Virus record (IMG/VR): IMGVR_UViG_3300030049_000007
Strand: one strand, 5' to 3'
Length of the DNA: 64,000 bases
DNA from: a virus
The notes under the pieces were generated by a model. It was not told where the DNA came from. It saw only the letters and a program-made list of their open reading frames with translations, and did not search any database. Of the stretch, positions 12,813 through 55,281 are shown piece after piece. Made by a program: the position numbers and the translations under genes. Numbering within the stretch: the first letter of the stretch is position 1; the number at the start of each line of letters is the position of its first letter.

Positions 12813-13160
12813 ATGAGTTTAATTAAATTAGCTATGCGAACTGGTAAAGCTATTAGAGGTTTATTTAGTGCCGTAGAAGCTGATGTTAAAAATTCTAGAA
12901 ATGCAACTAAAAAAGCTATTCAGGGCGCTTATGAAGGTGCCAAGAATGGTGATTTAGGTGCTGCTTATTTAAAACAACGTAAAATGAATAGTGATTTAGG
13001 TAAGAAGATTCGTAAATTAAGAGATCAGATTAAAGGTCATGAATCTGAAATTAAATCTCATAAATTAAAAGAAAAGATTATCGGTGGAGTTGGATTAGGA
13101 ACTACCATTGGCGCTGGAAGTCTAGCTTTTCGTCATAAAAAGAATGTGGAGAAATTATAA
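12813..13160 (+). CDS. MSLIKLA-leader protein (true start 12813, not 12762)
   Basis: GAGGA SD, then ATGAGTTTAATTAAATTAGC. Basic protein with a C-terminal 'IIGGVGLGTTIGAGSLAF'. Confidence 0.75.
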   Translation: MSLIKLAMRTGKAIRGLFSAVEADVKNSRNATKKAIQGAYEGAKNGDLGAAYLKQRKMNSDLGKKIRKLRDQIKGHESEIKSHKLKEKIIGGVGLGTTIGAGSLAFRHKKNVEKL

Positions 13161-13435
13161 TGTCTATCGTAAAACTTGCTTTTAATCTTTCAGGGATTAA
13201 AGATGCAGTAGTTAATGCTGCTAAAGGTACTGCTATTAAATCTGAGGCTCATCGCCTTGAGAATAGTACCTTAACTTCATTACGCAGACTTCCTACTGCT
13301 GCTGATAAACTTAAACATTTTGCTACTACTAAATCTGGCTTAAAATCTTTAGCTCCTAGTGCTGCTCTTTATGGAGGGGCTGCTTTAGGTGTTGGCGCTG
13401 CGGCAAAAGCTTTAACTGGCAAAAAGAATGATTAA
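13160..13435 (+). CDS. MSIVKLA-leader protein
   Basis: Leader variant, with a C-terminal 'AALYGGAALGVGAAA'. Confidence 0.75.
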   Translation: MSIVKLAFNLSGIKDAVVNAAKGTAIKSEAHRLENSTLTSLRRLPTAADKLKHFATTKSGLKSLAPSAALYGGAALGVGAAAKALTGKKND

Positions 13436-13781
13436 AGAAATTGCATTAAAATATGATGATTTAGGATTATTTAAACTTGCATCTATTCTTGAAAAAGATG
13501 GTGCGGTTAATCCTATGCAGATGGCCATTAGTAAGACTATGAATCCTGAACAGGGATTACATTATAATCTTGCTACCGATGCTGCCGCTGCTGCTAAAAA
13601 AGATCCTTCTAAATTAGGATTAATGAGACAGCGTTTACAGGGATTAAAAAAGACTGGACCGTTAAGATTAGATGATGCTGTTAAATCTGGCATTGTTAAT
13701 TCCTTAAAGAAACCTACTCCTATAGCAGAAGTTATTCCATTTGCTAATAAACTTAAATCTATGGCTTTAAAAGTGAAATAA
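13428..13781 (+). CDS. Putative virion internal protein (internal GLFKLA motif)
   Basis: Lies in the head operon and carries 'LGLFKLASILEKDG' near the N-terminus. Confidence 0.6.
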   Translation: MIKEIALKYDDLGLFKLASILEKDGAVNPMQMAISKTMNPEQGLHYNLATDAAAAAKKDPSKLGLMRQRLQGLKKTGPLRLDDAVKSGIVNSLKKPTPIAEVIPFANKLKSMALKVK

Positions 13782-13782
13782 T

Positions 13783-13998
13783 ATGAGTTTAATTAAATTA
13801 GCATTTAAAGACTCAAAAGAATTAGATAGTGAATATATAGATAATAGATGGCTTGGAAGACGGGCAAGAGGTAAGTTATTAACTTATCCATTAGCTGCAT
13901 TTGGAATGTTACCTGCTCCATTACTTGGACATTACTTAGATCATAGACGTAAAGAGAAAGATTTTATGAATCATCCTGAAAAATTTAAAAAGAAATAA
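13783..13998 (+). CDS. MSLIKLA-leader protein
   Basis: Identical 20-nt leader and hydrophobic 'PLAAFGMLPAPLLG'. Confidence 0.75.
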   Translation: MSLIKLAFKDSKELDSEYIDNRWLGRRARGKLLTYPLAAFGMLPAPLLGHYLDHRRKEKDFMNHPEKFKKK

Positions 13999-14000
13999 TA

Positions 14001-15725
14001 ATGTATAAATTAATAGAATCATCAAATATTCCAGAAGATCAACAAATATCTATCTCATTAGAAGATAGATATGAAAATGATTTTATTAAAACTGCTTCTA
14101 AAAGAGATTTACCAAAAGAAGTTGATGAGGCTATTAAAAATTTAAAACGTAAAAAAGATCATAGCTATATGTTAGTAACTGCTATGGGTGATGGTGAAAC
14201 ATGGTCTGATAATAAAAATCATGATTATTTTCCATATGATTCATTGTTAGGATTACAAAATACTCCTGTTTGGAATGAAGTCTCACCTAAAGATGAAAGA
14301 TTAAATAATAGAATAAAAGCTAAGTTACGTTATCAAACATTTAGTGACGCTGGCTGGTTTCATCATCATCATAACAAACCAGAGCGTGGAGATCAAATTT
14401 ATGGTGAGGTTCCAAATGCTATTTGGAATCCAAAAATGCATACAGTACTTCTTATTATTGGAGTAGATAATAAAAAAGATCCTGAAACTGCTGAAATGAT
14501 TAAAAGAAATCAATTAGTTGCAGTTTCTATGGGAGCTAAACTTCCATGGGATCGTTGTTCTATTTGTCATCAACATAATACTTCTATTATGAAATATTGT
14601 CCTCATCTTAAATTTCAAATGGGTAAAATTTTAGATGATGGTCGTAAAATTTATGCTGAAAATTTATTTCCTAGATTTTTTGATATTAGTAAAGTAAATC
14701 GACCTGCATTTTTAGCCGGTATGCAATTAGAAAAAGTTGCTAGTACAGATTTTGAATTTAGTTTAGATCTTGCTGATTATTATGATATTGGACAATTTGA
14801 TAAAGAGGCAGAAGAAATAGAAAAACATTCTACCATTTACAAAGAAATGCCAACTCATATTGAAGGTGCAATAGCTAAAGTATGTAATACTGAAAGAGAT
14901 CTTCCACATAAATTAATGGAAGAATTAGCTAAACTTAAACCTTCTGAAGCTTGGGGTGCTTTAACTCATGCCGGTATTATTGCTAAGCCAAATGAGTTTG
15001 CTTATATTTTATTAAAGAATTCTAATCGTGATGATTTAGCTCAAGAATTTTATCATACTAAAGCAGTAATTAAAAATCCTGACGTAAAAGGATTAGATGA
15101 AGAATTGCATTCTTTAGCTGATATTGATATTACACATAAAGCCGTTAAATTATCTAATGAAATTCCTACTCATATATTAGATGAAAGATCTATTGGATGT
15201 GTTGGAGATAGAATTTACAATACTGAAAAAGGTTTACGTAAAGAAGCCGAAATAACTAGAACTATAGGTCTTGGATCTATTCTTTCTGCATTATATTTAT
15301 TATATCGTAATAACGCTGAAAGTAAATTTAGCGCTTATGGTTTATTAGGTTCTGGTATTTCTCAAATGATTAGAGACAATAAAGAGTCTGATAAATATAT
15401 TAGTAATAATCCATTTACTAATGAAGAGTTAAATAAACAAGCTGCCGCAGTTCCTGGTTTCTGGAATTCAGGCAAAGGATTATTAACTAAAGGAGCTATT
15501 GGTTTTGCAGCTCCATATATTGCTAGTGCCCACTACCAAAATAAAATGCAACAAGGATATCCTGTTGGAGTTTTAGGTAGAACTATTGCTAACAACCCTG
15601 GTAAAATGGGAATTGTTGGTGCCGCAATGGGAATGGCTGGTGCAAAGAATAGTTATAAAGCTATTAAGAATGTATCTAATGATTTAACAACTGGCGTAAG
15701 CAAAATTTTTAAGGATAAAAAATAA
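14001..15725 (+). CDS. Probable prohead (capsid maturation) protease with a C-terminal extension
   Basis: 'N.N.D.F', 'FHHHHN', 'VSMG...DRCSIC...C.H', 'FFDIS.V..PA' pattern, located upstream of the scaffold and capsid genes. Confidence 0.65.
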   Translation: MYKLIESSNIPEDQQISISLEDRYENDFIKTASKRDLPKEVDEAIKNLKRKKDHSYMLVTAMGDGETWSDNKNHDYFPYDSLLGLQNTPVWNEVSPKDERLNNRIKAKLRYQTFSDAGWFHHHHNKPERGDQIYGEVPNAIWNPKMHTVLLIIGVDNKKDPETAEMIKRNQLVAVSMGAKLPWDRCSICHQHNTSIMKYCPHLKFQMGKILDDGRKIYAENLFPRFFDISKVNRPAFLAGMQLEKVASTDFEFSLDLADYYDIGQFDKEAEEIEKHSTIYKEMPTHIEGAIAKVCNTERDLPHKLMEELAKLKPSEAWGALTHAGIIAKPNEFAYILLKNSNRDDLAQEFYHTKAVIKNPDVKGLDEELHSLADIDITHKAVKLSNEIPTHILDERSIGCVGDRIYNTEKGLRKEAEITRTIGLGSILSALYLLYRNNAESKFSAYGLLGSGISQMIRDNKESDKYISNNPFTNEELNKQAAAVPGFWNSGKGLLTKGAIGFAAPYIASAHYQNKMQQGYPVGVLGRTIANNPGKMGIVGAAMGMAGAKNSYKAIKNVSNDLTTGVSKIFKDKK

Positions 15726-16297
15726 TGGATCTCAAAGAATTTATAGAAAAAACAGAGCCAGAGGTCTTGCAAAAACTCGCGTCTGAAGCTCAAGATGAAA
15801 TGGTTAATAAAGTAATAGATGCTATCTTTCCTTTGTTAGAAAAGACCGCAAATTATACAGCACAGCTTGTCTTAGAAAAGATTGCCGAAGAATTATCTGA
15901 AAAGAAAGAACCTAAAGAAGAAAAGGAAGAGGTTGAAAATACCGATAATCCTAATGAGGAAAGTGCAGAACAAGCTGCTGTAGAAGATGAAAATGTTAAA
16001 ATAGATAGTACTCCTGCTACTGGTAATAAAACTAATGAAACTATGGACCCAACTAATACTCCAGGTGGTATGCGGGCTCAGGATATTAAAAATGCGGTAA
16101 GTGAAGCTTGCGAGGCTGGTCAATCTAATAAAATTATTCCATTTGTTAAAGCTGTAGGTGAACAATATCCTGATGCTATTCAGGAATTAATTAAAATGGT
16201 TAAAGTAGAATTACAAGCTGCTTTTTTAAATAAATCTATTGATGAGGAAACTGCTACTGCTCTTTCCGATGAATTAAATGCGATGGTGGGAGCTTAA
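15725..16297 (+). CDS. Acidic scaffold/core protein
   Basis: QKLA, EKTA and EKIA motifs; head operon. Confidence 0.55.
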   Translation: MDLKEFIEKTEPEVLQKLASEAQDEMVNKVIDAIFPLLEKTANYTAQLVLEKIAEELSEKKEPKEEKEEVENTDNPNEESAEQAAVEDENVKIDSTPATGNKTNETMDPTNTPGGMRAQDIKNAVSEACEAGQSNKIIPFVKAVGEQYPDAIQELIKMVKVELQAAFLNKSIDEETATALSDELNAMVGA

Positions 16298-16702
16298 ATG
16301 AGTGATAGTTTTATTGATAAACTTTTAGCAGAAGCCGAATCTGAGATTGGTTCGGATTTAGAAAAGTCAGCTAATGATGAAAATGGTGCGCCCGATGCTC
16401 CATCTAATCAGGAACAGGGTGGTGGTGATATTTTAACTACTGCTCAAGCCTTTTTACAGAAAGTAGAACAGTTTAAAGCTGCTTTATCTCAGGGTGGGAC
16501 TCCAGCAGAAGGTGATCCTAATGCGCAGCCTAATCAGGAAGATCAACCTGCCGAAGCTGCCGCTGCTCAAGCTGTAGGAGCTACTACTTCTGGTAATAGC
16601 ACAGTAATGATTCAAAGACCTGATGGAACGCAAATTAAATTAGCCTCTTTAGCTTCGTTAGTTTCGGCTAGAGGATCTAAACTTTTTAAAGAGGTAAATT
16701 AA
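16298..16702 (+). CDS. Acidic scaffold/core protein
   Basis: EKSA and IKLA motifs; low complexity. Confidence 0.5.
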   Translation: MSDSFIDKLLAEAESEIGSDLEKSANDENGAPDAPSNQEQGGGDILTTAQAFLQKVEQFKAALSQGGTPAEGDPNAQPNQEDQPAEAAAAQAVGATTSGNSTVMIQRPDGTQIKLASLASLVSARGSKLFKEVN

Positions 16703-16703
16703 A

Positions 16704-17087
16704 ATGGACCCAGTTCAGCAAGGTCAATCAGATCCGCTTCAGGATGCTTTACAGCTTTTAGATGAATCTGCTGCTATTATTCAAGAATTAACTGCTCAGA
16801 TTCAGTCTAAGGGAAAAGACGAAGATATGTCCAAGAAAGCGGAGGAAGTGGCCGTTAAATTAGGCGTGTCTTTTAATCAGGCTTCTGATATGATTAAGAC
16901 TGCGAGCGAATCAGGTGAAAGTATCGATGCCATGGTAAAAATGGCCTCTATTATGAGACAGAATAGATCTTTTGGTTCCGTATATACAGAAGAAAAAGTA
17001 ATTCCAATTTCAGGCTCTAAAGCAATTGATTCATTCATGGAAAAGCAAGCTGCGTTAATGGGTGAATTAGGACTTGACGAAAATTAA
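16704..17087 (+). CDS. Scaffold-like protein
   Basis: IKTA, VKMA and EKQA motifs; just upstream of the capsid genes. Confidence 0.5.
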   Translation: MDPVQQGQSDPLQDALQLLDESAAIIQELTAQIQSKGKDEDMSKKAEEVAVKLGVSFNQASDMIKTASESGESIDAMVKMASIMRQNRSFGSVYTEEKVIPISGSKAIDSFMEKQAALMGELGLDEN

Positions 17088-17112
17088 CCATTATATCAAG
17101 GAGATATAAAAT

Positions 17113-17547
17113 ATGTTTAACATTCTCAGTGGCCTTCAGGAAGGTTCTCACTCAGTAATGATCACTAGCCGTTCTGGCCCCGCCGGACTGGTTAAAGGTA
17201 CGGTTGTTCAGTTAACTGGTACTTCTAATACTATTGCTAAATCTGATAATAGCACCGTAGGTCTTGGATCTTCAATTGGTTTCATCTTTGAAGATCTGTT
17301 AAGTCAGACTTCCGGTTCTTATACCGTAGTTTATGGTGTCATGGAAGCTGAAACTGATCAGGTTTCTGGATCACCTGCCATTGGTTCTTATCTTAAGCCT
17401 GGCACTGGTGCTACTGCCGGTTTACTTATTGCAGCTAGTCTTCCTGGCGATGCTAATTTGGTTAAAGGTCAGGTAGCTGATAGTTACAGCATTGCTAATG
17501 ATGCTCAGGGTATTAGCACTTCGGTTTATCGTATCGTAACCTTTTAA
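17113..17547 (+). CDS. Probable capsid decoration/cement protein
   Basis: 144 aa, rich in Gly/Ser and beta-type residues, immediately upstream of the major capsid gene, with a strong SD. Confidence 0.55.
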   Translation: MFNILSGLQEGSHSVMITSRSGPAGLVKGTVVQLTGTSNTIAKSDNSTVGLGSSIGFIFEDLLSQTSGSYTVVYGVMEAETDQVSGSPAIGSYLKPGTGATAGLLIAASLPGDANLVKGQVADSYSIANDAQGISTSVYRIVTF

Positions 17548-17580
17548 GATAAATTAAAAATTAAATAGGAGATTTTAATT

Positions 17581-18501
17581 ATGAGTAATATGATGGCTTC
17601 CCAGCTTTGGGATGTATTTACCGGAAAATCAGCTTCCGGTATGGAGAAGGTAGCCGCTCTTACTGAGGATTTTATTCGTGATCGCCTTCGTGAGACTAGC
17701 GTATTAAATCGCGCTATTCCTCCTGTAGTACTTACCGAAGCACAGATTGAACGTAATACTACTAATGACTGGCCTCTGAAGCGCGTTGAGATTGAGCCCG
17801 ATTCTAAGGCTTTCACTCTTGGCTTCCGTGGTAAGGGTTCTGCTAACTTTATGGAAGGCAGAAAGTATGAAGTTTACTTTACCAAGATTGAAACTCAGCA
17901 CTTTAAGAAGACCCGTGAAGAATTAATGACAATGCGTTATCCTCTTATGGATGTTGTGAATAACAACTTCGTACTGGATATGCAGGAACAGCTTGATGCT
18001 CTCTTTAAGATTAGACTTGATGCTTCCGTAGCCGCTTCCGGTAATACCTCTGCTGCTACTGCTGGTGCCGTAAAAGATAACTTTAAGAATGCAGTTATTA
18101 CAGCGGTTCGTCAGGTGCTTGGTAAACGGCGTAGAGTTGCTCGCCTTATTATGACAGAATCAACTTGGCTGGACCTGGCTAAGCTCGAACCTGATAAGAT
18201 TGGTTATGAGAATGTTGGACGTATTGCGCTGAATGGCGTTGCTGCGGAAAAGACATTCTTAGGTTATGAAGTTATCACTTCGATTAACTCCACTACCGCT
18301 AATAGCGTATGGCCTGATGATAGTATCTATGCCATTGCAATGCCTGAATTTTTAGGTTCTAACTTTATCCTGGGTGATGTTCAACAGGAAATGAAGCGTG
18401 AAGCTAATATTCTCGAATGGTATTCATGGGCTGATCAGGGTGCTGAAATTGGTAACGTTGCCTCAGTTGCTAAGGTTACTGGTATTGCCTCTCTCACTTA
18501 A
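17581..18501 (+). CDS. Major capsid protein (HK97-fold, inferred)
   Basis: 306 aa with biased codon usage and a strong SD. 'FIRDRLRE.S..R..IPP' follows 'MEKVA'. It lies at the end of the protease-scaffold-decoration series. Confidence 0.8.
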   Translation: MSNMMASQLWDVFTGKSASGMEKVAALTEDFIRDRLRETSVLNRAIPPVVLTEAQIERNTTNDWPLKRVEIEPDSKAFTLGFRGKGSANFMEGRKYEVYFTKIETQHFKKTREELMTMRYPLMDVVNNNFVLDMQEQLDALFKIRLDASVAASGNTSAATAGAVKDNFKNAVITAVRQVLGKRRRVARLIMTESTWLDLAKLEPDKIGYENVGRIALNGVAAEKTFLGYEVITSINSTTANSVWPDDSIYAIAMPEFLGSNFILGDVQQEMKREANILEWYSWADQGAEIGNVASVAKVTGIASLT

Positions 18502-18514
18502 ATAGGAGTTACAT

Positions 18515-18886: not shown

Positions 18887-18908
18887 ATTGTTATAATATG
18901 AAACAACT

Positions 18909-18938
18909 AAAAACCGCTTCTAGCGGTTTTTGTTGTTT
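18909..18938 (+). terminator. Intrinsic terminator
   Basis: AAAAACCGCT-tct-AGCGGTTTTT. Confidence 0.75.
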
Positions 18939-18967
18939 TATGATATAATCAGATAGAGGTAACTCAC

Positions 18968-19804: not shown

Positions 19805-19813
19805 TTAATAGTT

Positions 19814-20037: not shown

Positions 20038-20057
20038 ATTATATTACTTCCATTTAT

Positions 20058-24797: not shown

Positions 24798-25256
24798 CTA
24801 TTTCTTTACATTCTTATCGTTAGGCATATATTGATTTAATAAAGAACCATCTAATACATTCTTATCATTTATTTTATAATAAATGACTATACGATAAAAC
24901 ATTGGATTTTCTTTATCTTTAGTTGTAAATTCTCCAATATAACATAACTTAATTTCTTTAGCCCAATCCTTATTTATTAAATCATCATATTCGTCTAAGT
25001 GAATTCTAGAAATAATCTCACCAAAAAAACTAAATTTCTTTTTTAATTTCTTTTCTTCTAAATCAGTAATATCGCTATACTGAAAAATAATAAAAGGATT
25101 GCCAAACATATCTAATCTAATATCATTATCAACTATATGATATTTATGATTATTATTAGCAATCTTATCTAAAAGTAATACATATTCACCTAATTCATCA
25201 GTATTAGTTAATTCAAAATATTCGGAATGAGATTTTACGACTGGCGTTTTTTCCAT
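24798..25256 (-). CDS. Hypothetical protein
   Basis: ORF within the operon. Confidence 0.6.
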   Translation of the reverse strand: MEKTPVVKSHSEYFELTNTDELGEYVLLLDKIANNNHKYHIVDNDIRLDMFGNPFIIFQYSDITDLEEKKLKKKFSFFGEIISRIHLDEYDDLINKDWAKEIKLCYIGEFTTKDKENPMFYRIVIYYKINDKNVLDGSLLNQYMPNDKNVKK

Positions 25257-26062
25257 GGACCCAAATCCCTTACGTTAGTATTCATTAACTTCTGCCAATT
25301 ATCGAATCTGGCTATACGACGCGCTCTGGCTTCAGGAGTTGACATTAAGCGATCTGCTAATATATGTTTTCCAATTAATTTATTATAAAAAGGTTTATTA
25401 GCAGCCTCTAATTGAGATCTCCAATAATTATCTTTAAAATATTCTTTATGAATTTTAGGCATCATAGATAATTTACCATGTGTAAAATTCATCATTTTCT
25501 TAACAGATCCACCTAATGCGCCACCAATTAATCCACCTTTAGCCATACCTTTTAATTTTTCATGCTCATTATCTCCCTGAGTATATCCAATAGCGGCACC
25601 ACTAATAGTTCCTAAATGAGCGGTTGGAACTTTCTTAGCTACACTTAAAAATTTATGAGCATCATTACCTAAATTAATCATTCCCTCAATATTTTTAATT
25701 TTAAATTGACCATCATCTGAAATGGAATGTTTTAATATACTTTTAGCAATTCTATTAGTTCCCGTGGGAACATTATGAATATCTTCTAATGCATTAATTC
25801 CCATACGTCCAAACTGTCCAAGTAATGCACCATCTATAAAAGCGCCTCTTAAAGTAGTTGAGTCTTGAACTAATCCTTTTCTTATATTAGCTTCAGCTTG
25901 TGCTACTCCAGCTAAAGCTGATCTTTGTATAATATTTTTTCTAATAGGACCATTAGTTCTAGACATCATAAATTTTAATGGATTCCCAGATCTAGCTGCT
26001 CTCATACTATAAAAACTAGGGAATAAACTACCCGGATTAAATGCTAATTTTATTAAACTCAT
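25235..26062 (-). CDS. MSLIKLA-leader protein with glycine-zipper helices
   Basis: Leader is 19/20 nt identical to the others. Contains 'GTISGAAIG' and 'GGLIGGALGG'. Coupled to the portal gene by an ATGA overlap. Confidence 0.75.
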   Translation of the reverse strand: MSLIKLAFNPGSLFPSFYSMRAARSGNPLKFMMSRTNGPIRKNIIQRSALAGVAQAEANIRKGLVQDSTTLRGAFIDGALLGQFGRMGINALEDIHNVPTGTNRIAKSILKHSISDDGQFKIKNIEGMINLGNDAHKFLSVAKKVPTAHLGTISGAAIGYTQGDNEHEKLKGMAKGGLIGGALGGSVKKMMNFTHGKLSMMPKIHKEYFKDNYWRSQLEAANKPFYNKLIGKHILADRLMSTPEARARRIARFDNWQKLMNTNVRDLGPWKKRQS

Positions 26063-27882
26063 ACCTTCGCCTTTTCGGGAGTAGATTTTGGACCTTTAAC
26101 TTCAGGTAATGGATCTGCTGAAACCCCATTTAATTCTGCCATAACTTTCATATAAACTTCTGGATCTTTAGCTTGCAAATTTCTTAATTCTTTTTGTCTA
26201 TCAGCATAAGATAAATCTTTAAATTTATTCACAAATCCACGAGTAGTTGTAGCCATAAATCCATCACCTATATTAGATTGAGCAGATTGAGTTTCTTGAC
26301 CTTGTAATAATTGTGTTCTTAAATTAACATCAACTTGACCTTCATTAGTAACTTGAGAAACTTCTTTATTAACTTCAGCAGCAGCCAATTGTCTAGCTGC
26401 TTGAATTCTCTCAAGGAAGGGTTTATCATCTTCCATTTGCTTAGCTTCATCGGCAATATTAATACCAACTTGAGCCAAAGCTGTACTTTCACTAATACGA
26501 CCCTGCGCACCAAGATTTGAAAGCATTTGAATTTGCTGAATATCATCAGCCATTTTAAATGGTTTAAGTTTAACACTACTTGGAGCTTGCTTATTGGTCA
26601 TACGTGCTAAATAACGTACTAAAAATCTAATAAATGTATTTTGTTTATTAATATAATATAAAAATAAATTCTCTAACATACGTAAAGAAATATTAGATCC
26701 GCTCCAAGTCATACCACCATAAATTAATTCTGGTGGAATTCCTAATTGAGTAAGAATTCTACGATCCTGTAATTCAATTTCTTCCCGTAAAGACATAGCT
26801 TTTCCTTGGCCACCCAAAGCCTGATAGCCAACAGGAAAAGGAACAACTCCAATTTCATTGGGATCATTTTGCTGTCTCTTTAATTGAGTAGCTACAATAC
26901 CCATCCATGCAGCACCATCAATTTTACTTAACGGATCAGTGCCACTAGACGACGTTGGAAATATAAATCTATTAGGAAGAAAATGATCTGAAGCAATACA
27001 TTCCTGAGCCTTACGTAAAATAAAACTCATAAATAAATCGTTCCATGCTGAGAAGAAAAATGGTTTTGATAATCCTTCCCATTCTGGTTCTGTAATGCCT
27101 TCATGCTGATAATGAAAAGTTAATTCAGCAGGTAATTCTATTACTGGATTAATTGGATTTTGTTTGCAAGCTAATATGAAAGTTTCTGGAACATTAGCTA
27201 CTACAAATTTATCACCCTTCATAATTGGTTTAGAATATTTATCTTCGATACGATAATAAATTTTCTTTTTACCAGCAATACCTAAATCTCTTACTTTAAT
27301 AAACTGAACAGGCCATCTCTGAATTCTAATATTTTTAATGAATTCATCGCCTTCTAACAATTCATCTTTAACCTTCATTACACCTTGAAATTTACAATTT
27401 TTATTAGAACATTTAGCTAGAAATTTATAATCCCTAAATTGCCATTCAAATTTACGATCTTCATCAGTAATACAATGTGCTTTATAAGTATTACAATCAG
27501 GACAAGCTAAATAACGTTTAAATGGAGGAACTATAGATACTATAGCATTTCCAAAAGTATAATAATCTTTTCCATTTTTAACTAATTCATCTTGAATACA
27601 TAATTCATCATTAAGTAATTTAGACCAATAATTTTTATCTTCTCCAATATCATTATCTACTACCACGGGAGTAATAGGATATCGTGACATAGTATCGGTA
27701 ATACGATCTAAAAGACCAGAAGATTCGTTTAAAACAATAGCCCATTTAAAAATTTCATTTAAAGTCTTTGGTCTTTGAAGATGTAATAAATTATAAAATC
27801 TTTGAGGATACTGCAAGCCGTTCATTGGATAACGACGACCAGTCTCCGGTGCTACTACTGATGTTGTAGATACATTAGTCAT
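26059..27882 (-). CDS. Portal protein with an inserted Cys4 zinc-ribbon-like segment
   Basis: 607 aa. 'DYYTFGNAIVS', 'G.S...SA', 'ILTQLGIPPELIYGG..WSGS' portal-like pattern, with a CPDC...CSNKNC insert. Confidence 0.75.
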   Translation of the reverse strand: MTNVSTTSVVAPETGRRYPMNGLQYPQRFYNLLHLQRPKTLNEIFKWAIVLNESSGLLDRITDTMSRYPITPVVVDNDIGEDKNYWSKLLNDELCIQDELVKNGKDYYTFGNAIVSIVPPFKRYLACPDCNTYKAHCITDEDRKFEWQFRDYKFLAKCSNKNCKFQGVMKVKDELLEGDEFIKNIRIQRWPVQFIKVRDLGIAGKKKIYYRIEDKYSKPIMKGDKFVVANVPETFILACKQNPINPVIELPAELTFHYQHEGITEPEWEGLSKPFFFSAWNDLFMSFILRKAQECIASDHFLPNRFIFPTSSSGTDPLSKIDGAAWMGIVATQLKRQQNDPNEIGVVPFPVGYQALGGQGKAMSLREEIELQDRRILTQLGIPPELIYGGMTWSGSNISLRMLENLFLYYINKQNTFIRFLVRYLARMTNKQAPSSVKLKPFKMADDIQQIQMLSNLGAQGRISESTALAQVGINIADEAKQMEDDKPFLERIQAARQLAAAEVNKEVSQVTNEGQVDVNLRTQLLQGQETQSAQSNIGDGFMATTTRGFVNKFKDLSYADRQKELRNLQAKDPEVYMKVMAELNGVSADPLPEVKGPKSTPEKAKV

Positions 27883-34281: not shown

Positions 34282-35697
34282 TTAACCTTTTAAAACATTT
34301 GTAAATTGGTCATTTAATTGCTGTTTTTCCATGCTTCTATTGCGCATATATTCATCAATTCCAATTTTATGTATATTTGGATTAAAGTATCTCTTAATTT
34401 TTCCGAACATCCCAAGTCTAGGTTCTGAAAGATATTGTATAACTTTTAATTTTCTTTCTTCTTCGGGTAATGATTTATGAGAATCGTATCTAGCCGCTCT
34501 TCCAATGGCCTGTAAAGTTTTTTGAGGATTCCAGCTTTGGTCAACAATTCCCATCATCTTTGTATTATGAAGATCTAAACCTTCACCACCTGCCGGTGAA
34601 ATTAATAAAGTTTTTAATTTTCCTTTATTATAATCAGTTACCATTTGATTTCTTTCTTCTTTACTCTGTTCTCCTGTAAACATACCATATGGTATATTTC
34701 TTTTTTTTAATTTTCGAGCTATCGGATCTAATCCTGATTCCAAAAAGCCAGAATAAATAGCAGCCTTGAAATTCTTATCCTTTTTCATTCCTTGTTGAAT
34801 ATCGCTCATTATAGCATCTATTTTAGGTGTATGTGTAGAACCACCATAACCCTCAACACTATTTGAAATTTGTCTACCTGCAATAGAGAAAGCATTTAAA
34901 TTAACTGATTCGCGTTTATTTAAAGGCAAATTGTGATTAATCTTGTATTTAACCCAGCCAGGGGCTTGTTTAAATGCGTAGTCATAATATCCTTGCTGTT
35001 CTTTGCTCATTCCAATTCTTTGAATTTCTTCTTCTACTTTTGGTAAATGCTTATTATAATCTTCATTACCAGAAAAAGTATTAATATAAGGAGAGGCTAA
35101 TTCTTTAAACTTATCTAAGTTTTTAGCCTCCTGAATCGTGCCGCCTTTTCGCCCCATTAATCTTCCAATAAGTCCTGGTCCAATTTTACGTTCTTTAATA
35201 AAGTTAGCTCTAAATTCTTTCTCTGTACCAAGAACTGGTTTACCCGCTACTGTATGTAGTAATGAAGCTATTTCAGTTGGACTATTTTGGGCAATCGAAC
35301 CACTTAAACCCAACATTTTATTAACTTTAGATCTAGAATATCTAAGTGTATCTCCAGTAAGAGAACTTTCATTTTGAGCACGATGTAATTCATCGGCAAT
35401 AATCATCTTTGGCTTATATTTGCTTAAATAAAAATCTGGATTAAGACGATATTTTTCGTAAGATACTAAATGGTAGTTATCTAAAGGTACGTTAAACTTT
35501 TTTAATTCTTTAATATAATTATGACTAAGAGATGCTGGAGTTAAAACTAATTTAGATTCAGAAGGATCTTGCTCTCCAATAGCAATTGATGATAAACTTT
35601 TTCCACTTCCTAAACCATGGAATAAAATCTGTGACTTAGTTTTATTAAATTGCTTTACAGCATCATTTTGATGCTCTTGTAATTTATAATCAGGCAT
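34282..35697 (-). CDS. Second SNF2-family helicase, inside the structural operon (start probably MPDYKL at 35697)
   Basis: 'HGLGSGKS', 'DELHR', 'LSGS', 'AGGEGLDL', 'WNP....QAIGRAAR'. Confidence 0.85.
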   Translation of the reverse strand: MPDYKLQEHQNDAVKQFNKTKSQILFHGLGSGKSLSSIAIGEQDPSESKLVLTPASLSHNYIKELKKFNVPLDNYHLVSYEKYRLNPDFYLSKYKPKMIIADELHRAQNESSLTGDTLRYSRSKVNKMLGLSGSIAQNSPTEIASLLHTVAGKPVLGTEKEFRANFIKERKIGPGLIGRLMGRKGGTIQEAKNLDKFKELASPYINTFSGNEDYNKHLPKVEEEIQRIGMSKEQQGYYDYAFKQAPGWVKYKINHNLPLNKRESVNLNAFSIAGRQISNSVEGYGGSTHTPKIDAIMSDIQQGMKKDKNFKAAIYSGFLESGLDPIARKLKKRNIPYGMFTGEQSKEERNQMVTDYNKGKLKTLLISPAGGEGLDLHNTKMMGIVDQSWNPQKTLQAIGRAARYDSHKSLPEEERKLKVIQYLSEPRLGMFGKIKRYFNPNIHKIGIDEYMRNRSMEKQQLNDQFTNVLKG

Positions 35698-49119: not shown

Positions 49120-49152
49120 TTTAGATCCATTATATCTCTCTATGAGAAATGA

Positions 49153-49180
49153 AAACAGGCACCTAATTGGTGCCTGTTAT
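49153..49180 (-). terminator. Terminator after ssb
   Basis: AACAGGCACC-taatt-GGTGCCTGTT. Confidence 0.7.
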
Positions 49181-49209
49181 TATTTTACATTTACTAGAAC
49201 CTTATTATA

Positions 49210-49659
49210 TCAGAATGGGATATCTGAATCATCTTCAACGGTATTAGTTCCAGATCCACCATTATTATCACTATCTGCATAACCAGTCTGTTCGGGATCT
49301 GGTTCGTGATGACCCCCACTCTCGCCCTTCTTACCACAGAAATCAAAAGCATTCAACTTAATATGAGTATACCAAATCTTCTTATTTTCATCTGCGGGAT
49401 TCTTACCTTCGGTATACTCAATCTTACCTTCGATAATAACTTCAGCACCCTTCTTAAAAAACTTTTCAATTGCTTCGCCTTGCTTACCCCAGGCTACAAT
49501 ATTATGCCATTCAGTCTTGGACTTAGCACTTCCATCCTTGTCCTTCCAATTTTCAGTAGTGGCTACCGAAAAACGACAAAGAGTTGCACCACCTGGAGTT
49601 GCCTTCAATTCAGGATCTTTACCCAGAAATCCATGAAGGATAACCTTATTAGTTGACAT
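49210..49659 (-). CDS. ssb: Single-stranded DNA-binding protein (start MSTNKV)
   Basis: 'NKVILHGFLGKDPE', 'TEWHNIVAWG' and an acidic 'DDSDIPF' tail. Confidence 0.95.
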   Translation of the reverse strand: MSTNKVILHGFLGKDPELKATPGGATLCRFSVATTENWKDKDGSAKSKTEWHNIVAWGKQGEAIEKFFKKGAEVIIEGKIEYTEGKNPADENKKIWYTHIKLNAFDFCGKKGESGGHHEPDPEQTGYADSDNNGGSGTNTVEDDSDIPF

Positions 49660-49744
49660 ACTTTCTCCGTTAAGAGTTGATGGCCATGTCTCAATGGCCA
49701 ATTGTTATGTTATTTTATAATAATATCAAACTTTATTAGTTTGA

Positions 49745-49888
49745 TTATTGAGCGAGAACTAATTCGCGCACGTATGTAGATACGTCCTTATTAGCCTCTG
49801 ATGCAATCTTTTCAAATTGCTCTTTTTCTTCACTTGTCACTCTGATTGTGACAAATTTTCTTCTGTGTAATTTACATAACTCTGACAT
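49745..49888 (-). CDS. Ribbon-helix-helix DNA-binding protein (47 aa), not in the ORF track
   Basis: GAGGA SD; MSELCKLHRRKFVTIRVTSEEKEQFEKIASEANKDVSTYVRELVLAQ. Confidence 0.7.
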   Translation of the reverse strand: MSELCKLHRRKFVTIRVTSEEKEQFEKIASEANKDVSTYVRELVLAQ

Positions 49889-49913
49889 GGTGTATTCCTC
49901 GTAATCATACTAT

Positions 49914-49942
49914 ATTGTAGCACGATTCTGAGGACGGTGCAA
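49914..49942 (-). promoter_or_regulatory. Class II promoter for the RHH-ssb unit
   Basis: TTGCAC-N17-TACAAT with a TG extension. Confidence 0.7.
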
Positions 49943-49944
49943 GT

Positions 49945-50642
49945 TTAATTTAACAACACTCTCATTAATGATTCTCTATCAAGTTCTTTTGTAGTGCATT
50001 TATAACAATTTTCTCCAGTACCTTGAAAAGTAATATTTTCTCCTAAAACATAAATAGATTCAATTAATTTTAAATTTACGAAAACTTCTCCATTAGATTG
50101 AACAATTTTAATAAATTCCATCTGCAATCCTATTCTTTGCAACTAATTGCTGAAGAGACTGACCTGCTTTTTTAATTGTTCGATATCGGTCTTTTGGATC
50201 TTTATGATTTAGACAGATTGATTTATTATCATTAAGACAACTTGCGATAATAGAAATCTTATTTTTAATACTAATTCCTCGCATTGAAAAAACCTTATTG
50301 TTTACTTCTTCTGGATTAAGATTCAGTAAACTATAAATTTCCTGTACACGATCTTCATTATCGGTCATTTATGATTTCCATTTCAGTCTCTAATAGAAAA
50401 GGATATTTCTCTAATTTATTTAAAAGATCTTCATAAGAACAATCTACTATCTTTCTTATAGATCTCCATGTCTGAAAAAGAATCATTGGTTGTTTTAAGA
50501 AGAATAATTTAATTTCAAGACCTGATTTTTTATAAAAAGTGAGTCGTACTTTATCAGTATCTTCTTCGATGTCAAGTACAATTTTCCAATTTTTTGCCAC
50601 TCCAAACTCATTTATTTTATTTATAATTTTATCTCTACACAT
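49945..50642 (-). other. Three small hypothetical early genes
   Basis: Overlapping ORFs downstream of promoter copy 6. Confidence 0.6.
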
Positions 50643-50839
50643 TTTTAATCCTCGTCTGAGTCGCCATTATAATATGGCCAAGACATATTTTACTCCTGTA
50701 TATATTGTGTTTCAAACACCCTCCCATATGTAAGGATTATATAGTTATTAGGATGATAAGTCGCTATTGCTTATCAAGTATTTTTTGATAAACAATAACT
50801 ACTTACCAAGAGAAATAATATAATATTATCTCCATATAT

Positions 50840-50869
50840 ATTATAACAAAAAAGGAAGACTTTTTGCGA
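50840..50869 (-). promoter_or_regulatory. Class I promoter copy 6
   Basis: CGCAA-N18-TATAAT. Confidence 0.75.
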
Positions 50870-50902
50870 CACCTGTGTTATCATTAAGGAAAGGAGATTC
50901 TT

Positions 50903-51292
50903 ATGTGGAAGTTAGTCGGAGCTATTTCTATTGTTTTATCAACAAGTTTATTTATTGAAATGTTAATTCGTAAAGTAGTTACCCTTACTCAATTACGAGA
51001 TTGTGTAATTTCTTTATTCCAGGGTGTAGTTAGTAGATTTGATCGTTCTGTAACTGGGAATGATGGATCTTATTCTAGTACAAGATTATTAGATTATCTT
51101 TGGGGTATTGGTGGATTTTGCTTAGTATGTCTTTGTACTTTAAGAAAAATTAATATTCCCGATGGTGTATATTATTTGATTGGAACAGCAATAGGTGTTG
51201 GCGCTACAAAAGGTGTATTTAATAAAATTCAAGAAATTAAAACTGTTGCTGGTAAAATAATTGGAGATCATAATGATTCAGATAATCAGTAA
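50903..51292 (+). CDS. Holin-like membrane protein
   Basis: Three hydrophobic segments, an 'SSTRL' motif and a strong SD. Confidence 0.5.
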   Translation: MWKLVGAISIVLSTSLFIEMLIRKVVTLTQLRDCVISLFQGVVSRFDRSVTGNDGSYSSTRLLDYLWGIGGFCLVCLCTLRKINIPDGVYYLIGTAIGVGATKGVFNKIQEIKTVAGKIIGDHNDSDNQ

Positions 51293-52004
51293 ATGTAAAA
51301 GTTATTTATATACAATTTTAATTACTGCATTAGTAACGAGTGGAGTTTATACTTATATATTAAATAGATCAACAAATAAAGATGCTGTAAAAATTGCTAC
51401 TTTAAGTGGAGAAAATACAAAATTAAATGATTCTCTTAAAGATCAAACTGCTAAAAATCAAATTTTGCAAGCTAAAGTTGATCAAGCAACTACTAATGTA
51501 AATAATGCTCATCAAGTTACTATTACTGCAGATAACCATCTTAATTCTACACCTTCAACAGTTAATATAACTCCAGTTAAAGAAGTACAAGAAGTAAAAG
51601 ATGCAATAGCTAAAAATTATAATGATTCTACTGTAGGATTTGATGGTACAAGATTTAATATTATTCAACCTACAGTAGTTAGTTTAACTAATGATGCTAT
51701 TCAATGGAAAGTTAATGGTCCTATTTTAACAACAAAATTAGCTGCTACCGAAGAAAGTTTAGATGCTACTAGAAAAGAAAATACTGCTAATCAAACTTTA
51801 GTTACTACGCAAACTGATTTAAATAATGGTTTAACTAACTCTAATAAATTACTTACTGAAACTAATAATAATAAGGATAAACAGATTAACTTATATGAGA
51901 AAGACTTGAAAGTTCAATCAATGAATGGTAAGATTAAATTTGTCCTTGGTATTGGTATTGGTGGTGGTGGTTATTGGATCTATGACCATTACATTAAAAA
52001 ATAA
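51261..52004 (+). CDS. Membrane-anchored coiled-coil protein (spanin-like)
   Basis: N-terminal TM segment, coiled coils, and a hydrophobic C-terminus. Confidence 0.45.
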   Translation: MEIIMIQIISKCKSYLYTILITALVTSGVYTYILNRSTNKDAVKIATLSGENTKLNDSLKDQTAKNQILQAKVDQATTNVNNAHQVTITADNHLNSTPSTVNITPVKEVQEVKDAIAKNYNDSTVGFDGTRFNIIQPTVVSLTNDAIQWKVNGPILTTKLAATEESLDATRKENTANQTLVTTQTDLNNGLTNSNKLLTETNNNKDKQINLYEKDLKVQSMNGKIKFVLGIGIGGGGYWIYDHYIKK

Positions 52005-52022
52005 TGTTATTTTAAAGAGATA

Positions 52023-52709
52023 ATGATGGATGTGATAGAAATATTAGGTGAAATAATAAAAAAATGGGGACTTGTAGCTGGATTTCATTTTTTGTTATTT
52101 AGTACAATTATATATATATTAATTCATAAGACCATTAATGGTAAAACTCTTTGGAATAAATTATTTAATAAAACTAAAACAAAATATAATCTATCTAATC
52201 ACGTAATGTTTGTTAATTTAAGAAAATATATAAACTACGACATTAAACATTTTACATTAGGAGAAAGGTTACGAGAAGCTATTTTCCGTGATTTTCTCCT
52301 AATTAAATTTACGATTGTAGAAGATGAATTTAAGAAAGTTATAGAAGATAATACTCTTGAGTTAATGTCTAACGAAGTCTATTCTAAAAGAATGTTAGAC
52401 TGTATTGTTAATATTGTAAAGTTATATGAAATAAAAGCTAAGGAAGCTGGTATACCTGATATTGCTATAACTAGATTTACCGAATGGTATGATGATAAGG
52501 TTCAGGCTATTTATGCTTTTATAATTAATGTTTGTGAAGATACTGATATTTACAATGATAATAACATTAAGACTAAAGTAATATTTGATTTTATGAATCA
52601 TATTAATAACTTTACTATTTTAGGTATTCGTAAAGTTCTTTTAGACTTTAATGGTGAGTTAAGTAAACTTACTTATAAAGGTATTACTTATAATAGGTAT
52701 GGAAAATAA
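52023..52709 (+). CDS. Membrane protein (holin/antiholin-like)
   Basis: Single N-terminal TM segment followed by a soluble domain. Confidence 0.4.
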   Translation: MMDVIEILGEIIKKWGLVAGFHFLLFSTIIYILIHKTINGKTLWNKLFNKTKTKYNLSNHVMFVNLRKYINYDIKHFTLGERLREAIFRDFLLIKFTIVEDEFKKVIEDNTLELMSNEVYSKRMLDCIVNIVKLYEIKAKEAGIPDIAITRFTEWYDDKVQAIYAFIINVCEDTDIYNDNNIKTKVIFDFMNHINNFTILGIRKVLLDFNGELSKLTYKGITYNRYGK

Positions 52710-52841
52710 ATCTCATAAATATTATAAAGAAACAAGATTTCTTTGAATATTGTGAAACTATGAATGATTTAATTAAGAATATGCCAAAACATGAGCAAGA
52801 CAAAATGAATAAGTTAATGAAGAAATTTATTGAGAACTATA

Positions 52842-52994
52842 ATGGGTCTAATTAAACTAGCATTAGAAACATCTCCACTAGTAGAGAGTGACAAAGATCC
52901 TCGTCTACTTCCTGATACGGTAAGACAAAAACCTCAATTAAGAACCAAACCAAATAAAACAATGATGAACTGGGGAATGAAGAATACTGGTTAA
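52842..52994 (+). CDS. MGLIKLA-leader protein (50 aa), not in the ORF track
   Basis: MGLIKLALETSPLVESDKDPRLLPDTVRQKPQLRTKPNKTMMNWGMKNTG*. Confidence 0.7.
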   Translation: MGLIKLALETSPLVESDKDPRLLPDTVRQKPQLRTKPNKTMMNWGMKNTG

Positions 52995-53019
52995 CTAATA
53001 TATTAATTGGAGAAATAAA

Positions 53020-53340
53020 ATGCTTAGTATTATACTTTCTGTATTTCTATCTATTTCTCCAACAGCCTCTTCTATTCCTCCTGTGGATATACAGAGTAAA
53101 CAAATAGTAGAAGATCCTAATTTTCAACCACTAGTTGATCTAATTAATTCTCGTATTAAAGATAATAAAGCTTCTATCAAAATACAAGATGGAGATTATA
53201 ATGGTGAATTTTCTCTAAAGTTTATTCAACTAATAATGAACCTTTCTAAATATTATAAAGATCAAGGATTTAAAGTAAATATTTATCATGATGATGAACC
53301 TGACATTATTATATTTTCTATTAGTAAGATTGTGAGTTAA
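53020..53340 (+). CDS. Hypothetical protein with a signal-peptide-like N-terminus
   Basis: GGAG SD; 'MLSIILSVFLSISPTAS'. Confidence 0.55.
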   Translation: MLSIILSVFLSISPTASSIPPVDIQSKQIVEDPNFQPLVDLINSRIKDNKASIKIQDGDYNGEFSLKFIQLIMNLSKYYKDQGFKVNIYHDDEPDIIIFSISKIVS

Positions 53341-53341
53341 A

Positions 53342-54085
53342 ATGAGTTTAATTAAATTAGCTTTAGTTGTTCCTCAGACTAAATTTAATAGTTTTAAAGA
53401 TAACCTTGCAGCATTGCCGGTTAGAGGTTATGCCACTATGTCTAATAGTGGGAATATAATCGCTGGCGATGTGCGTAATCCATTACTTAGATTCACTTCT
53501 CCATTACATAAAATTTTTGATAGCAAACAAAATATAAAAGATTTACACAGAATAGGAATTAAGCATGAATTATCTGAAAGAAAATATCTTAATCAATATA
53601 ATGAAGGTAAAGGTCCTTTCGAAAGAATGTTTTCTAATCCTGTAAAAGCAGATATAAGACAAGGTATTTTTAATGCACCAAAAGGTAGGCATGCTACTTT
53701 AGCCGTTTTGGGCGAAGAAAGTAATAATTTATCTAAATTAAAAAATAAAAATGCAATTAATAGAATGCAAAAGATACGATATTTAACTGGTGAATCTGAT
53801 ATTATTAAAAATATAACTAGTAAAACTTATGGTAAAGATTTACTTTCTGCTGCTGATATAGATAAATTACATCAATCATCATTAAAACAATCTTTATATC
53901 ACACAAAATCAAAATCTGCTATTGGTAGAGTAGCAGGCATGGCACTTGCTCCATTTTTAATAAAAGGGGAAAATGATCAAAATACTGTAGGAAAGAGAAT
54001 TGATGCTTCTATATTAGGTGGAATGGTTGGTGCTAAAGGTGAGAAATTCTTACGAACTAATATTTTAAAACTACATAAGAGATAA
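53342..54085 (+). CDS. MSLIKLA-leader protein
   Basis: Identical 20-nt leader. Basic protein with 'KHELSE' and C-terminal GxxxG helices. Confidence 0.75.
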   Translation: MSLIKLALVVPQTKFNSFKDNLAALPVRGYATMSNSGNIIAGDVRNPLLRFTSPLHKIFDSKQNIKDLHRIGIKHELSERKYLNQYNEGKGPFERMFSNPVKADIRQGIFNAPKGRHATLAVLGEESNNLSKLKNKNAINRMQKIRYLTGESDIIKNITSKTYGKDLLSAADIDKLHQSSLKQSLYHTKSKSAIGRVAGMALAPFLIKGENDQNTVGKRIDASILGGMVGAKGEKFLRTNILKLHKR

Positions 54086-54089
54086 TAAT

Positions 54090-54809
54090 ATGCCCTGGTC
54101 ATATCCTGATAATGTACCAACTTCAATGAAATATTTTAAACCTTCTATTCAGAAGAAAGCAATTTCTATTGCAAATGCCATACTTAAAAATGGTGGTTCA
54201 GAAGGCACGGCCATTGCAACTGGAATTAAACGAAGTAAAGGATTGGTTAAATTAGCATCAGCTTTTACCAATGTTAAAGATTTTGTTAAATCTAATAAAT
54301 TTGCTTTAGGTGCTGCTGGTTTAGGTGCTGGACTGGCTGGATTAGAAAGTAAAAATCAAATAACTGATAAAAAATTTACAAAAGGTCAAAGAGTTAAAAA
54401 TGCGATTGTAACAGGTGCTCTTTTCGGTGCTTCAGGATGGGGATTAGACAGACTCTCTGGTATGAGAAAAAATATTATAAATAGAATAGAAGAGGATTTA
54501 GGAGACCCTAGAGATATCAACTCTAAGATTAGATCTAAAATTACAGAAGCAATGAAACAAGAAAAAGTTCCAGTTAAACCTGGAGGTTATCATAGATTTC
54601 CTATTGAAGCAAAAGTTCATGAAAAAGGTAATTATAGAACTCAATTAATAAAATTTACGCATGGTAAGGATGGTATTGAAAAACTATCCTTTATACGGGA
54701 TGGTAAATTTTTAAAAGAATTTATTAAACAATTAAATAAAGGTAATAAGAAATATTTAGTAGATAATTATAATAAACTTATTGAGAAAACGCAGGAGTCT
54801 ATATTATGA
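54090..54809 (+). CDS. Fusion of an MPW...KKAI.IANA.L domain to an internal GLVKLA tag and hydrophobic cargo
   Basis: Translation shows 'GLVKLASAF' followed by 'FALGAAGLGAGLAGL'. Confidence 0.6.
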   Translation: MPWSYPDNVPTSMKYFKPSIQKKAISIANAILKNGGSEGTAIATGIKRSKGLVKLASAFTNVKDFVKSNKFALGAAGLGAGLAGLESKNQITDKKFTKGQRVKNAIVTGALFGASGWGLDRLSGMRKNIINRIEEDLGDPRDINSKIRSKITEAMKQEKVPVKPGGYHRFPIEAKVHEKGNYRTQLIKFTHGKDGIEKLSFIRDGKFLKEFIKQLNKGNKKYLVDNYNKLIEKTQESIL

Positions 54810-54955
54810 GTTTAATTAAATTATGTTCAGTTATAATTCCTGATTCTCATTTAAAAGAAGATCATGAAGAATTAGAAAAAATGAAAAAGAATTCGAAAGG
54901 AATTCTTAAAACTGTAAAAGAAATGGAAGAAGAAGATAGTAAGGCTAAAAAATGA
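54806..54955 (+). CDS. MSLIKLC-leader protein (49 aa), not in the ORF track
   Basis: MSLIKLCSVIIPDSHLKEDHEELEKMKK...KAKK*, with ATGA overlaps on both sides. Confidence 0.7.
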   Translation: MSLIKLCSVIIPDSHLKEDHEELEKMKKNSKGILKTVKEMEEEDSKAKK

Positions 54956-55281
54956 GTTTAATTAAATTAGCATTAGATCAACAAAAAACTGGTATCGCTG
55001 GCTTTACTCAACGTCATCCTTATTTGACCTCAGGAATTGCGTTAACTGGTGGACTTGCGGCAGCCGACGCTGGTTTAAATGTATTTAAAACTTTAAAAGG
55101 AACGGGTGGTAGCCTCATTTCGGGTTTAAAGCAAATTAAGGGTAATCCTGGGCTCAGGAATGAGCTAGGTCACGGCATCAAGAAAGGTCTGGTGGAGGGT
55201 GGGCTTTATGGCTCGATTCTGGGGACTGTAGAACCTGCTATTGGTAGGGGAATATTTAGAAAACCTAAAGGTGAGGAATAG
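54952..55281 (+). CDS. MSLIKLA-leader protein
   Basis: Identical 20-nt leader and two Gly-rich hydrophobic segments. Confidence 0.75.
   Translation: MSLIKLALDQQKTGIAGFTQRHPYLTSGIALTGGLAAADAGLNVFKTLKGTGGSLISGLKQIKGNPGLRNELGHGIKKGLVEGGLYGSILGTVEPAIGRGIFRKPKGEE

Follow-up and report, generated by a model that had tools for sequence, protein, structure and literature searches.

Why would a virus write the same seven residues at the start of proteins that resemble one another in nothing else? The question is raised by a stretch of 64,000 nucleotides from the IMG/VR virus record IMGVR_UViG_3300030049_000007 (the window), which corresponds to bases 57,248-121,247 of a phage genome that is complete at 157,395 bp, bears terminal repeats and has a G+C content of ~31%. 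Eight genes of this window open with the peptide MSLIKLA or a close variant of it. We consider it fairly probable that the peptide acts as a portable N-terminal head-targeting propeptide of the kind known as the capsid-targeting sequence (CTS) of phage T4, here in an unrelated lineage. Its capsid protein and terminase have PHROG-level matches only, and the phage appears to encode a fused beta-beta' RNA polymerase. A DNA search among cultured phages returned no match, and a protein search with its head protease found only distant cultured relatives, namely the Vibrio phages D69, D181 and D148 (29% identity), Salmonella phage Arash and Bacillus phage G. Relatives carrying the same tag are nevertheless present in IMG/VR, and the genome under study (G000) is compared below with these and in particular with a 112.7-kb relative, G001.

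All eight open reading frames (ORFs) that an initial annotation had listed as opening with M-[SG]-[LI]-[IV]-K-L-[AC] are confirmed, with starts at 12813, 13160, 13783, 26062 (minus strand), 52842, 53342, 54806 and 54952. The exact 20-mer reported there does occur in four copies in the window, and allowing up to three mismatches brings the number to seven against 0.09 expected from shuffles; the DNA held in common is limited to ~21 nt, beyond which the flanks are unrelated on both sides. The genes at 13160 and 52842 spell nearly the same peptide with other codons, as had been described. Two tagged genes said to be missing from the list of ORFs lie below a 60-aa cut-off (52842, 50 aa; 54806, 49 aa), and the gene at 12813 is contained in a longer ORF starting at 12762; the start at 12813 is favoured because the first tagged gene of the relatives begins 65-75 nt past the stop of the scaffold-like gene. 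Of the three internal versions proposed earlier, two stand as genuine and tag-like, namely GLFKLA within 13428 and GLVKLA within 54090, whereas QIKLA (in 16298) has the look of a K-x-A site of the ordinary kind; a third internal tag-like copy, GIIKLA, was found genome-wide in a 125-aa protein. The whole genome holds 14 credible tagged ORFs, six of them beyond the window at genome positions 1133, 3152, 4502, 19756, 23267 and 153275. G001 yields 12 matches to the tag pattern, against none in the control, and has 15 tagged ORFs in total.

Is it the peptide or the DNA that is maintained? Among 54 tags from G000 and its relatives, departures from the modal codons comprise 89 synonymous and 32 non-synonymous changes, the latter all conservative, and K5 is invariant; the tags of G001 are written with AGC/TCT, CTT/CTA/CTC, ATC and AAG. 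Computation thus supports selection at the level of the peptide, as the initial annotation had proposed from the codon differences.

The tag also moves between proteins that are otherwise unrelated. BLASTP finds no similarity between the cargos of one genome beyond the tag, and only five orthologous tagged pairs connect G000 with G001. Eight relatives have from one to five different cassettes, all tagged, in the slot that separates the protease from the 225-aa scaffold-like gene, whereas the genes on either side stay collinear. In a relative with a 95%-identical protease the last cassette has been swapped: the two DNAs are homologous as far as the tag, no longer so within the cargo, and again from the start codon of the protease onward. 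Comparison of the cargo island (52842-55281) with G001 reveals conserved end cassettes and a different interior, and the part of the 125-aa protein that follows its internal GIIKLA, the C-terminal half, exists in G001 as a tagged protein of its own. The expectation that related genomes would vary in their repertoires is borne out, since the relatives carry the tag on different sets of cargos.

The clearest case is an SNF2 helicase that is untagged in the window (34282..35697, minus strand, starting MPDYKLQEHQ) and tagged in about half of its orthologues from relatives. The tag is present in 22 of 48 orthologues, always directly before the conserved core, and in G001 the helicase has MSLIKLA followed by a Lys/Glu linker; supported branches of the helicase tree force at least seven gains or losses of the tag. 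The protein matches PHROG profiles of giant helicase/methyltransferase proteins. In a sister clade the helicase begins with M[IL]IKLA and four other genes near the protease begin with MIIKLA, and the form of the tag is therefore uniform within a lineage across unrelated cargos. Cassette turnover, the gains and losses on the helicase and the paucity of orthologous pairs together lend computational support to a portable, autonomous N-terminal module. Antisense to the untagged helicase gene, the plus frame at 35192 contains SLIKLAL without a start codon, probably a chance occurrence.

What the tag is likely to encounter is indicated by the head module, which lies on the plus strand of a window that also encodes a large terminase (PHROG 675). 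The prohead protease (574 aa; 14001..15725, plus strand) matches the 'head maturation protease' PHROG 18299. Searches of its sequence against Pfam and PDB sequences gave nothing useful, and Foldseek with its model against the PDB returned weak rows only (herpesvirus proteases, E 0.2-0.6), but with an exhaustive aligner the model of the N-terminal domain (residues ~45-247; predicted local distance difference test, pLDDT, 81) matches the fold of T4 gp21 (5jbl; Z 9.2, root-mean-square deviation 2.9, 126 aligned residues) and of herpesvirus assemblin, represented by the varicella-zoster virus (VZV) protease (1vzv; Z 8.9), both rows standing above the next. The domain is bracketed by K30-x-A32 and K245-x-A247, two sites that show little or no variation among 31 homologues. 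Two scaffold-like head genes of 403 and 225 aa (10831..12750, plus strand) contain seven and eight K-[LIVMFT]-A sites against 1.4 and 1.3 expected, and scaffold-like proteins as a group contain 38 K-x-A against 15.4 expected. The major capsid protein (306 aa, PHROG 2522; 17581..18501, plus strand) has an N-terminal propeptide ending in MEKVA (residues 21-25), and in distant relatives the same place is taken by MEKTA, MVKTA, LTKEA or HNKEA; K-x-A also closes the leaders of other head proteins, which are dissimilar and 12-32 residues long. On account of the enrichment in scaffold-like proteins, of the sites on either side of the protease domain and of the one closing the capsid-protein propeptide, hydrophobic-x-K-x-A followed by S, A, E or G is the probable cleavage motif. 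The last five residues of the tag (L-I-K-L-A) fit it, and the earlier remark that the tag ends in K-x-A thus gains in meaning: this is the motif that marks the head-module proteins of a phage whose protease is predicted to have the gp21/assemblin fold.

The tag is nevertheless not simply one more of these sites. In T4, a 10-residue N-terminal propeptide is borne by variable, basic internal proteins, and its residues 4 and 7 serve in targeting, while residues 8 and 10 direct processing (PMC9026906). When the phage tags are compared with 44 internal K-x-A sites (Ala7 taken as P1), position P6 is Ser (87%) rather than Glu/Asp, P4 is Ile/Val (98%; one Phe) rather than mostly Glu/Asn/Thr, P2 is Leu (94%) rather than Thr/Val/Ile, and P1' is hydrophobic rather than Ser/Glu/Ala. 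S2, L3, I4 and L6 are thus far more constrained in tags than in ordinary sites, and for this reason, and by parallel with T4 CTS residues 4 and 7, Ser2, Leu3, Ile4 and Leu6 probably supply a binding, or address, function. A predicted complex of the protease domain (residues 34-250) and the N-terminal 45 residues of the 275-aa cargo scored 0.19 against a mark of 0.32 and is not evidence either way.

The cargos themselves may carry a trace of the protease. In 54 cargo bodies, with expectations from 2,000 shuffles, K-x-A occurs 44 times against 73.7 +/- 7.8 expected, a count as low as in none of the shuffles; the reverse motif A-x-K is not depleted (76 against 73.8), R-x-A is raised (37 against 26.3) and the rest of the genome displays no depletion of K-x-A (158 against 140). 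The few strong K-x-A sites left in cargos are located near the N-terminus or at a polyprotein junction. Since K-x-A is depleted in the bodies and A-x-K is not, the counts suggest that the cargos meet a K-x-A-specific protease.

In their composition the cargos are strongly basic, 11 of 12 having an isoelectric point (pI) above 9.5 compared with 15% of other small ORFs (p = 4e-6). The initial annotation counted six basic cargos among the eight of the window; we find seven (pI 9.8-10.4), the exception being the product of 54806 (pI 6.1), whose tag ends in Cys. Cargo lengths range from 47 to 494 aa, and a domain scan of 52 cargos (Pfam, PHROGs) gave seven glycine-zipper matches and one SNF2 helicase, the rest being devoid of known domains. 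Tagged genes reside between scaffold and protease, beside the putative portal gene, in a separate island (these three placements as originally claimed), beside a 1,995-aa RNA polymerase ORF and among tail-like genes. All belong to late or structural-looking modules, and none heads the early-looking blocks of small minus-strand genes.

The cassettes between scaffold and protease, all on the plus strand, begin with a 115-aa cargo (12813..13160; MSLIKLA, pI 10.4), followed by a basic 91-aa cargo (13160..13435; MSIVKLA in other codons) with a Gly/Ala-rich hydrophobic segment, a 117-aa gene (13428..13781) with a 12-residue leader before its internal GLFKLA (nt 13464-13481), and a 71-aa cargo (13783..13998; MSLIKLA), the one that is replaced by an unrelated tagged cassette in the relative with the 95%-identical protease. 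The island, on the same strand, runs from a 50-aa cargo (52842..52994; MGLIKLA), whose tagged orthologue in G001 is 72% identical, through a 247-aa cargo without known domain (53342..54085; MSLIKLA, pI 10.2), a 239-aa gene (54090..54809) and the non-basic 49-aa gene (54806..54955; MSLIKLC) to a 109-aa cargo (54952..55281; MSLIKLA) with a 55%-identical tagged orthologue in G001. In the 239-aa gene an internal GLVKLA (nt 54240-54257) separates an N-terminal part of ~50 residues from a Gly-rich hydrophobic part, and the product is likely to be a two-module polyprotein. Tagged genes are chained via stop/start overlaps of 1 or 4 nt (window 12813-13998, 54090-55281 and 26059-26062), an arrangement that suggests translational coupling.

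The minus-strand cargo of 275 aa (25235..26062; MSLIKLA) contains a glycine zipper, and its start overlaps by 4 nt (ATGA) the stop of the putative portal gene (607 aa; 26059..27882, minus strand), which is recognised by language-model similarity to portal families only. Its family is clade-wide, a search of 1.8 billion proteins having yielded 31 representatives, and no part of it is better conserved than the tag, which is kept down to 31% identity and present in 27 of 29 full-length representatives. The model is all-helical (pLDDT 77), with a flexible tag region (pLDDT <50). A Foldseek search with this model gave no significant match; stator proteins and alpha-pore-forming toxins appeared in weak rows (template modelling score ~0.2) that are not evidence of kinship. 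The roles proposed earlier for the cargos (membrane channel, host takeover, anti-defence) are guesses, for which the glycine-zipper segments and the tagged SNF2 helicase of relatives are the only hints.

Taken as a head-targeting propeptide, the tag would work as follows. Tagged proteins would be made late and enter the assembling prohead, where the gp21/assemblin-fold protease would trim them after Ala7 (Ser or Cys in a few); the trimmed cargos would stay in the head as basic, partly membrane-active internal proteins and leave it with the DNA. New cargos would be acquired in two ways: the cassette behind the tag is replaced, or a gene already present receives a tag. A bolder form of this proposal is that the 6-7-residue peptide is a self-sufficient, lineage-specific capsid address that loads any protein fused to it, the SNF2 helicase included, into the prohead and is then clipped by the K-x-A-specific, assemblin-like protease; we advance it tentatively, as possible rather than probable. 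If true, it would be the shortest natural capsid-loading tag known, and a phage group never brought into culture would turn out to possess a large and quickly changing arsenal of injected proteins. The 'minimal tag' idea raised by the initial annotation is plausible in this respect, given a sister clade that uses only six residues.

Several points weigh against the head-targeting propeptide. The phage and all of its close relatives are known from metagenomic sequence alone, and the K-x-A cleavage code is itself something that we infer. One tagged gene, at genome position 153275, is found among tail-like genes and adjoins a transglycosylase. The dipeptides K-A and A-K are depleted in cargo bodies too, and segregation of basic and Gly/Ala-rich segments therefore contributes to the depletion of K-x-A. 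K-x-A counts in the SNF2 helicase do not differ significantly whether it is tagged or not (0.50 versus 0.81, p = 0.07), which makes this comparison non-discriminating. At the DNA level, the modal 15-mer is commoner in G000 than codon usage predicts (five of eight against 4% expected, P ~6e-6), and Ser is encoded by AGT in 70% of cases against 26%. Because of the excess of the 15-mer, part of the DNA similarity reflects shared ancestry, recombination or an effect at the mRNA level; shared ancestry or recombination is also known for the internal-protein genes of T4. Finally, five of the seven tag residues are already accounted for by the generic site, so that a cut site without address function is possible.

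The last of these points is the core of the most serious alternative, namely that cargos enter the head by way of their basic or hydrophobic bodies or by co-assembly with the scaffold, and that LIKLA is merely a good protease site. The longer and dissimilar leaders of other head proteins, which end in K-x-A, are in keeping with this, as is Vibrio phage D69, which is dense in K-x-A sites yet has only one or two short N-terminal tags. We nonetheless judge it unlikely, since S2, I4/V4 and L6 are nearly fixed in tags and variable or polar in the 44 internal sites, and since the removal of a conserved heptapeptide from dozens of unrelated proteins, together with its repeated addition to a helicase, is hard to explain unless the peptide has a role before it is removed; the equivalent short propeptide of T4 is an address (PMC9026906).

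Could the tag instead serve some other machinery, such as a modifying enzyme, a degron, membrane insertion or another sorting route, its K-L-A ending being a coincidence? The glycine-zipper, membrane-like segments of many cargos might point this way, but the tag ends in the very motif whose enrichment is peculiar to head-module proteins, and tagged genes are grouped next to the portal and in the interval from scaffold to protease. A directional depletion of K-x-A would, in addition, be predicted only for cargos in contact with a protease of that specificity. Two particular candidates were rejected. A Sec, Tat or lipoprotein signal peptide is incompatible with seven conserved residues that are too short and, with Lys mid-way, too polar, followed by mixed residues at positions 9-12 (E, N, D, K, S, G) and no hydrophobic core; and a leader for a radical-SAM maturase, as in ribosomally synthesised and post-translationally modified peptides, would need an enzyme for which a PF04055 search of the complete genome gave zero matches with positive controls. 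On balance, service to another machinery strikes us as quite improbable.

An element acting in the nucleic acid, whereby the 20-mer would be a translation-initiation site, a translational-repressor operator or a recombination hotspot and the peptide a by-product, could account for the excess of the modal 15-mer and for the cassette breakpoint that falls at the tag. It is very improbable in view of the extensive synonymous variation under a constant peptide, of the in-frame internal GLFKLA, GLVKLA and GIIKLA, which cannot initiate translation, and of the different but uniform peptide of the sister clade; a role as recombination boundary is compatible with the head-targeting propeptide and does not compete with it. 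Descent of all cargos from one diverged paralogue family that kept only its N-terminus is hardly credible: many cargos are indeed small, basic and Gly/Ala-rich and 7 of 52 match glycine-zipper models, but they range from 47 to 494 aa and have nothing but the tag in common by BLASTP; among the tagged proteins, moreover, are a genuine SNF2 helicase, collinear with its untagged orthologues apart from the tag, and, in one relative, an acidic scaffold-like protein.

Among characterised systems the closest to the proposed head-targeting propeptide is the T4 CTS, carried by IPI, IPII, IPIII and Alt and removed by gp21. The analogy drawn by the initial annotation fits well as regards selection on the peptide, portability, the K-x-A ending and avoidance of the motif. 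Both are short N-terminal peptides common to otherwise unrelated, basic and strain-variable proteins; both end in the motif of the prohead protease (here presumably K-x-A), and the two proteases are predicted to share their fold; both are partly conserved in DNA and mark cassette boundaries, and in both, the residues for targeting appear to be separable from those for processing. Membership of the T4 CTS family at the level of sequence was, however, rejected, since there is no similarity and no I/L-x-E motif: T4 MKTYQEFIAE ends in I/L-x-E, whereas the phage tag ends in K-x-A with no Glu at P1. The tag is also shorter, with 7 residues (6 in the sister clade) against 10-19 in T4, and serves at least 14 cargos per genome against a handful; its lineage is unrelated, and the function of the T4 signal is experimental whereas that of the tag is read from sequence. 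What differs is hence the sequence and length of the tag, the cleavage code, the number of cargos and the lineage; the proposed logic and the predicted protease fold are those of T4. A literature search turned up no description of K-x-A as a prohead cleavage motif or of the MSLIKLA tag, and the papers on phage G and Arash report virion proteomes without cleavage sites.

Other systems share individual features. DarB, of the Dar anti-restriction system of bacteriophage P1, is a large enzyme with a helicase domain and an N-terminal signal, and in this it resembles the tagged SNF2 helicase of the relatives. Its capsid-targeting signal requires more than 9 and at most 30 residues and is not shared in sequence among Dar proteins (PMC9024508). 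No homology between this signal and the phage tag was detected, although no further search for it was made. Jumbo phages of the phiKZ and SPN3US type likewise have many head-internal and ejection proteins cut at a simple tripeptide by a gp21-like protease, and fragmented scaffold-like proteins, but their propeptides are long rather than a uniform short tag and their motif is S/A/G-x-E. Herpesvirus assemblin cuts its maturation and release sites, hydrophobic-x-Ala, before Ser; beyond the fold, the putative phage cut shares with it Ala at P1 and often Ser at P1', and the K-x-A site that ends the protease domain suggests self-release by analogy. Lys at P3 is, however, specific to the phage clade, and herpesviruses target by the C-terminal tail of the scaffold rather than by an N-terminal tag. 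The cargo-loading peptides of encapsulins are also short, portable and found on diverse cargo of an HK97-fold shell, but these mostly occupy the C-terminus, are retained rather than cut off by a protease, and attach to the shell directly.

If the head-targeting propeptide is real, the principle known from T4 would be a general one: an unrelated lineage with a different cleavage code would have evolved, or retained, a short N-terminal address that closes with the cut site of its head protease. The tag would then provide a computational label for head-internal and probably injected proteins of an uncultured clade, 14 of them here and other sets, the SNF2 helicase among them, in relatives, all candidates for host takeover and counter-defence. 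Directional depletion of a cleavage motif could become a general test for proteins that share a compartment with a maturation protease. A tag of 6-7 residues would moreover be attractive for protein packaging, although only after experimental proof.

Several further features of the genome and its relatives touch on the head and its contents. Across the 31 protease homologues D184 and C186 are invariant and S187, C189 and C200 nearly so (residues 184-200), which points to a small metal-binding insert in the protease domain, a feature not known from T4 gp21; of about 80 protease homologues, some (P0070, P0086 and P0090) are 684-968 aa long with LAGLIDADG or Hint domains, suggestive of inteins inside the head protease of some relatives. 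Downstream of the protease are three small acidic head-module genes with K-x-A sites (15725..17087, plus strand), the first of which has an orthologue starting MTLIKLA in relative L011. The SNF2 helicase family (P0099-P0148) contains about four-fold fewer K-x-A than its composition predicts, tagged and untagged alike (0.5-0.8 against 2.8), and the helicase may be head-associated even without the tag. In Vibrio phage D69 (L017) an 86-aa glycine-zipper protein directly after a PAAR gene starts MSLVKEA (record 167689-167949), and a 102-aa glycine-zipper protein of the head module starts MFKSAS; these could possibly represent single-copy ancestors of the tag system. A scan of IMG/VR with a degenerate pattern gave many chance matches, such as a 126-aa MSLIKLANGHKYEI protein on ~45-kb contigs that have no other similarity to the phage, and these were set aside.

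Outside the window, at genome 23576-29563 on the plus strand (L025:3576-9563), the 1,995-aa ORF matches several RNA polymerase beta/beta' PHROGs along its length and looks like a fused multisubunit RNA polymerase; it is situated in a late-looking module directly 3' of a tagged 99-aa gene. RNA polymerase beta and beta' are among the most abundant proteins of virion preparations of Arash, a distant cultured relative (PMC10585845), and for this reason the ORF may encode a virion RNA polymerase. Within the window, just downstream of the cargo island, a long simple repeat at 55524-55809 (minus strand) translates to (Ala-Met)n in one frame and to repeated Gly-Asn/Asp-Gly-Tyr in a second, and is probably non-coding tandem DNA.

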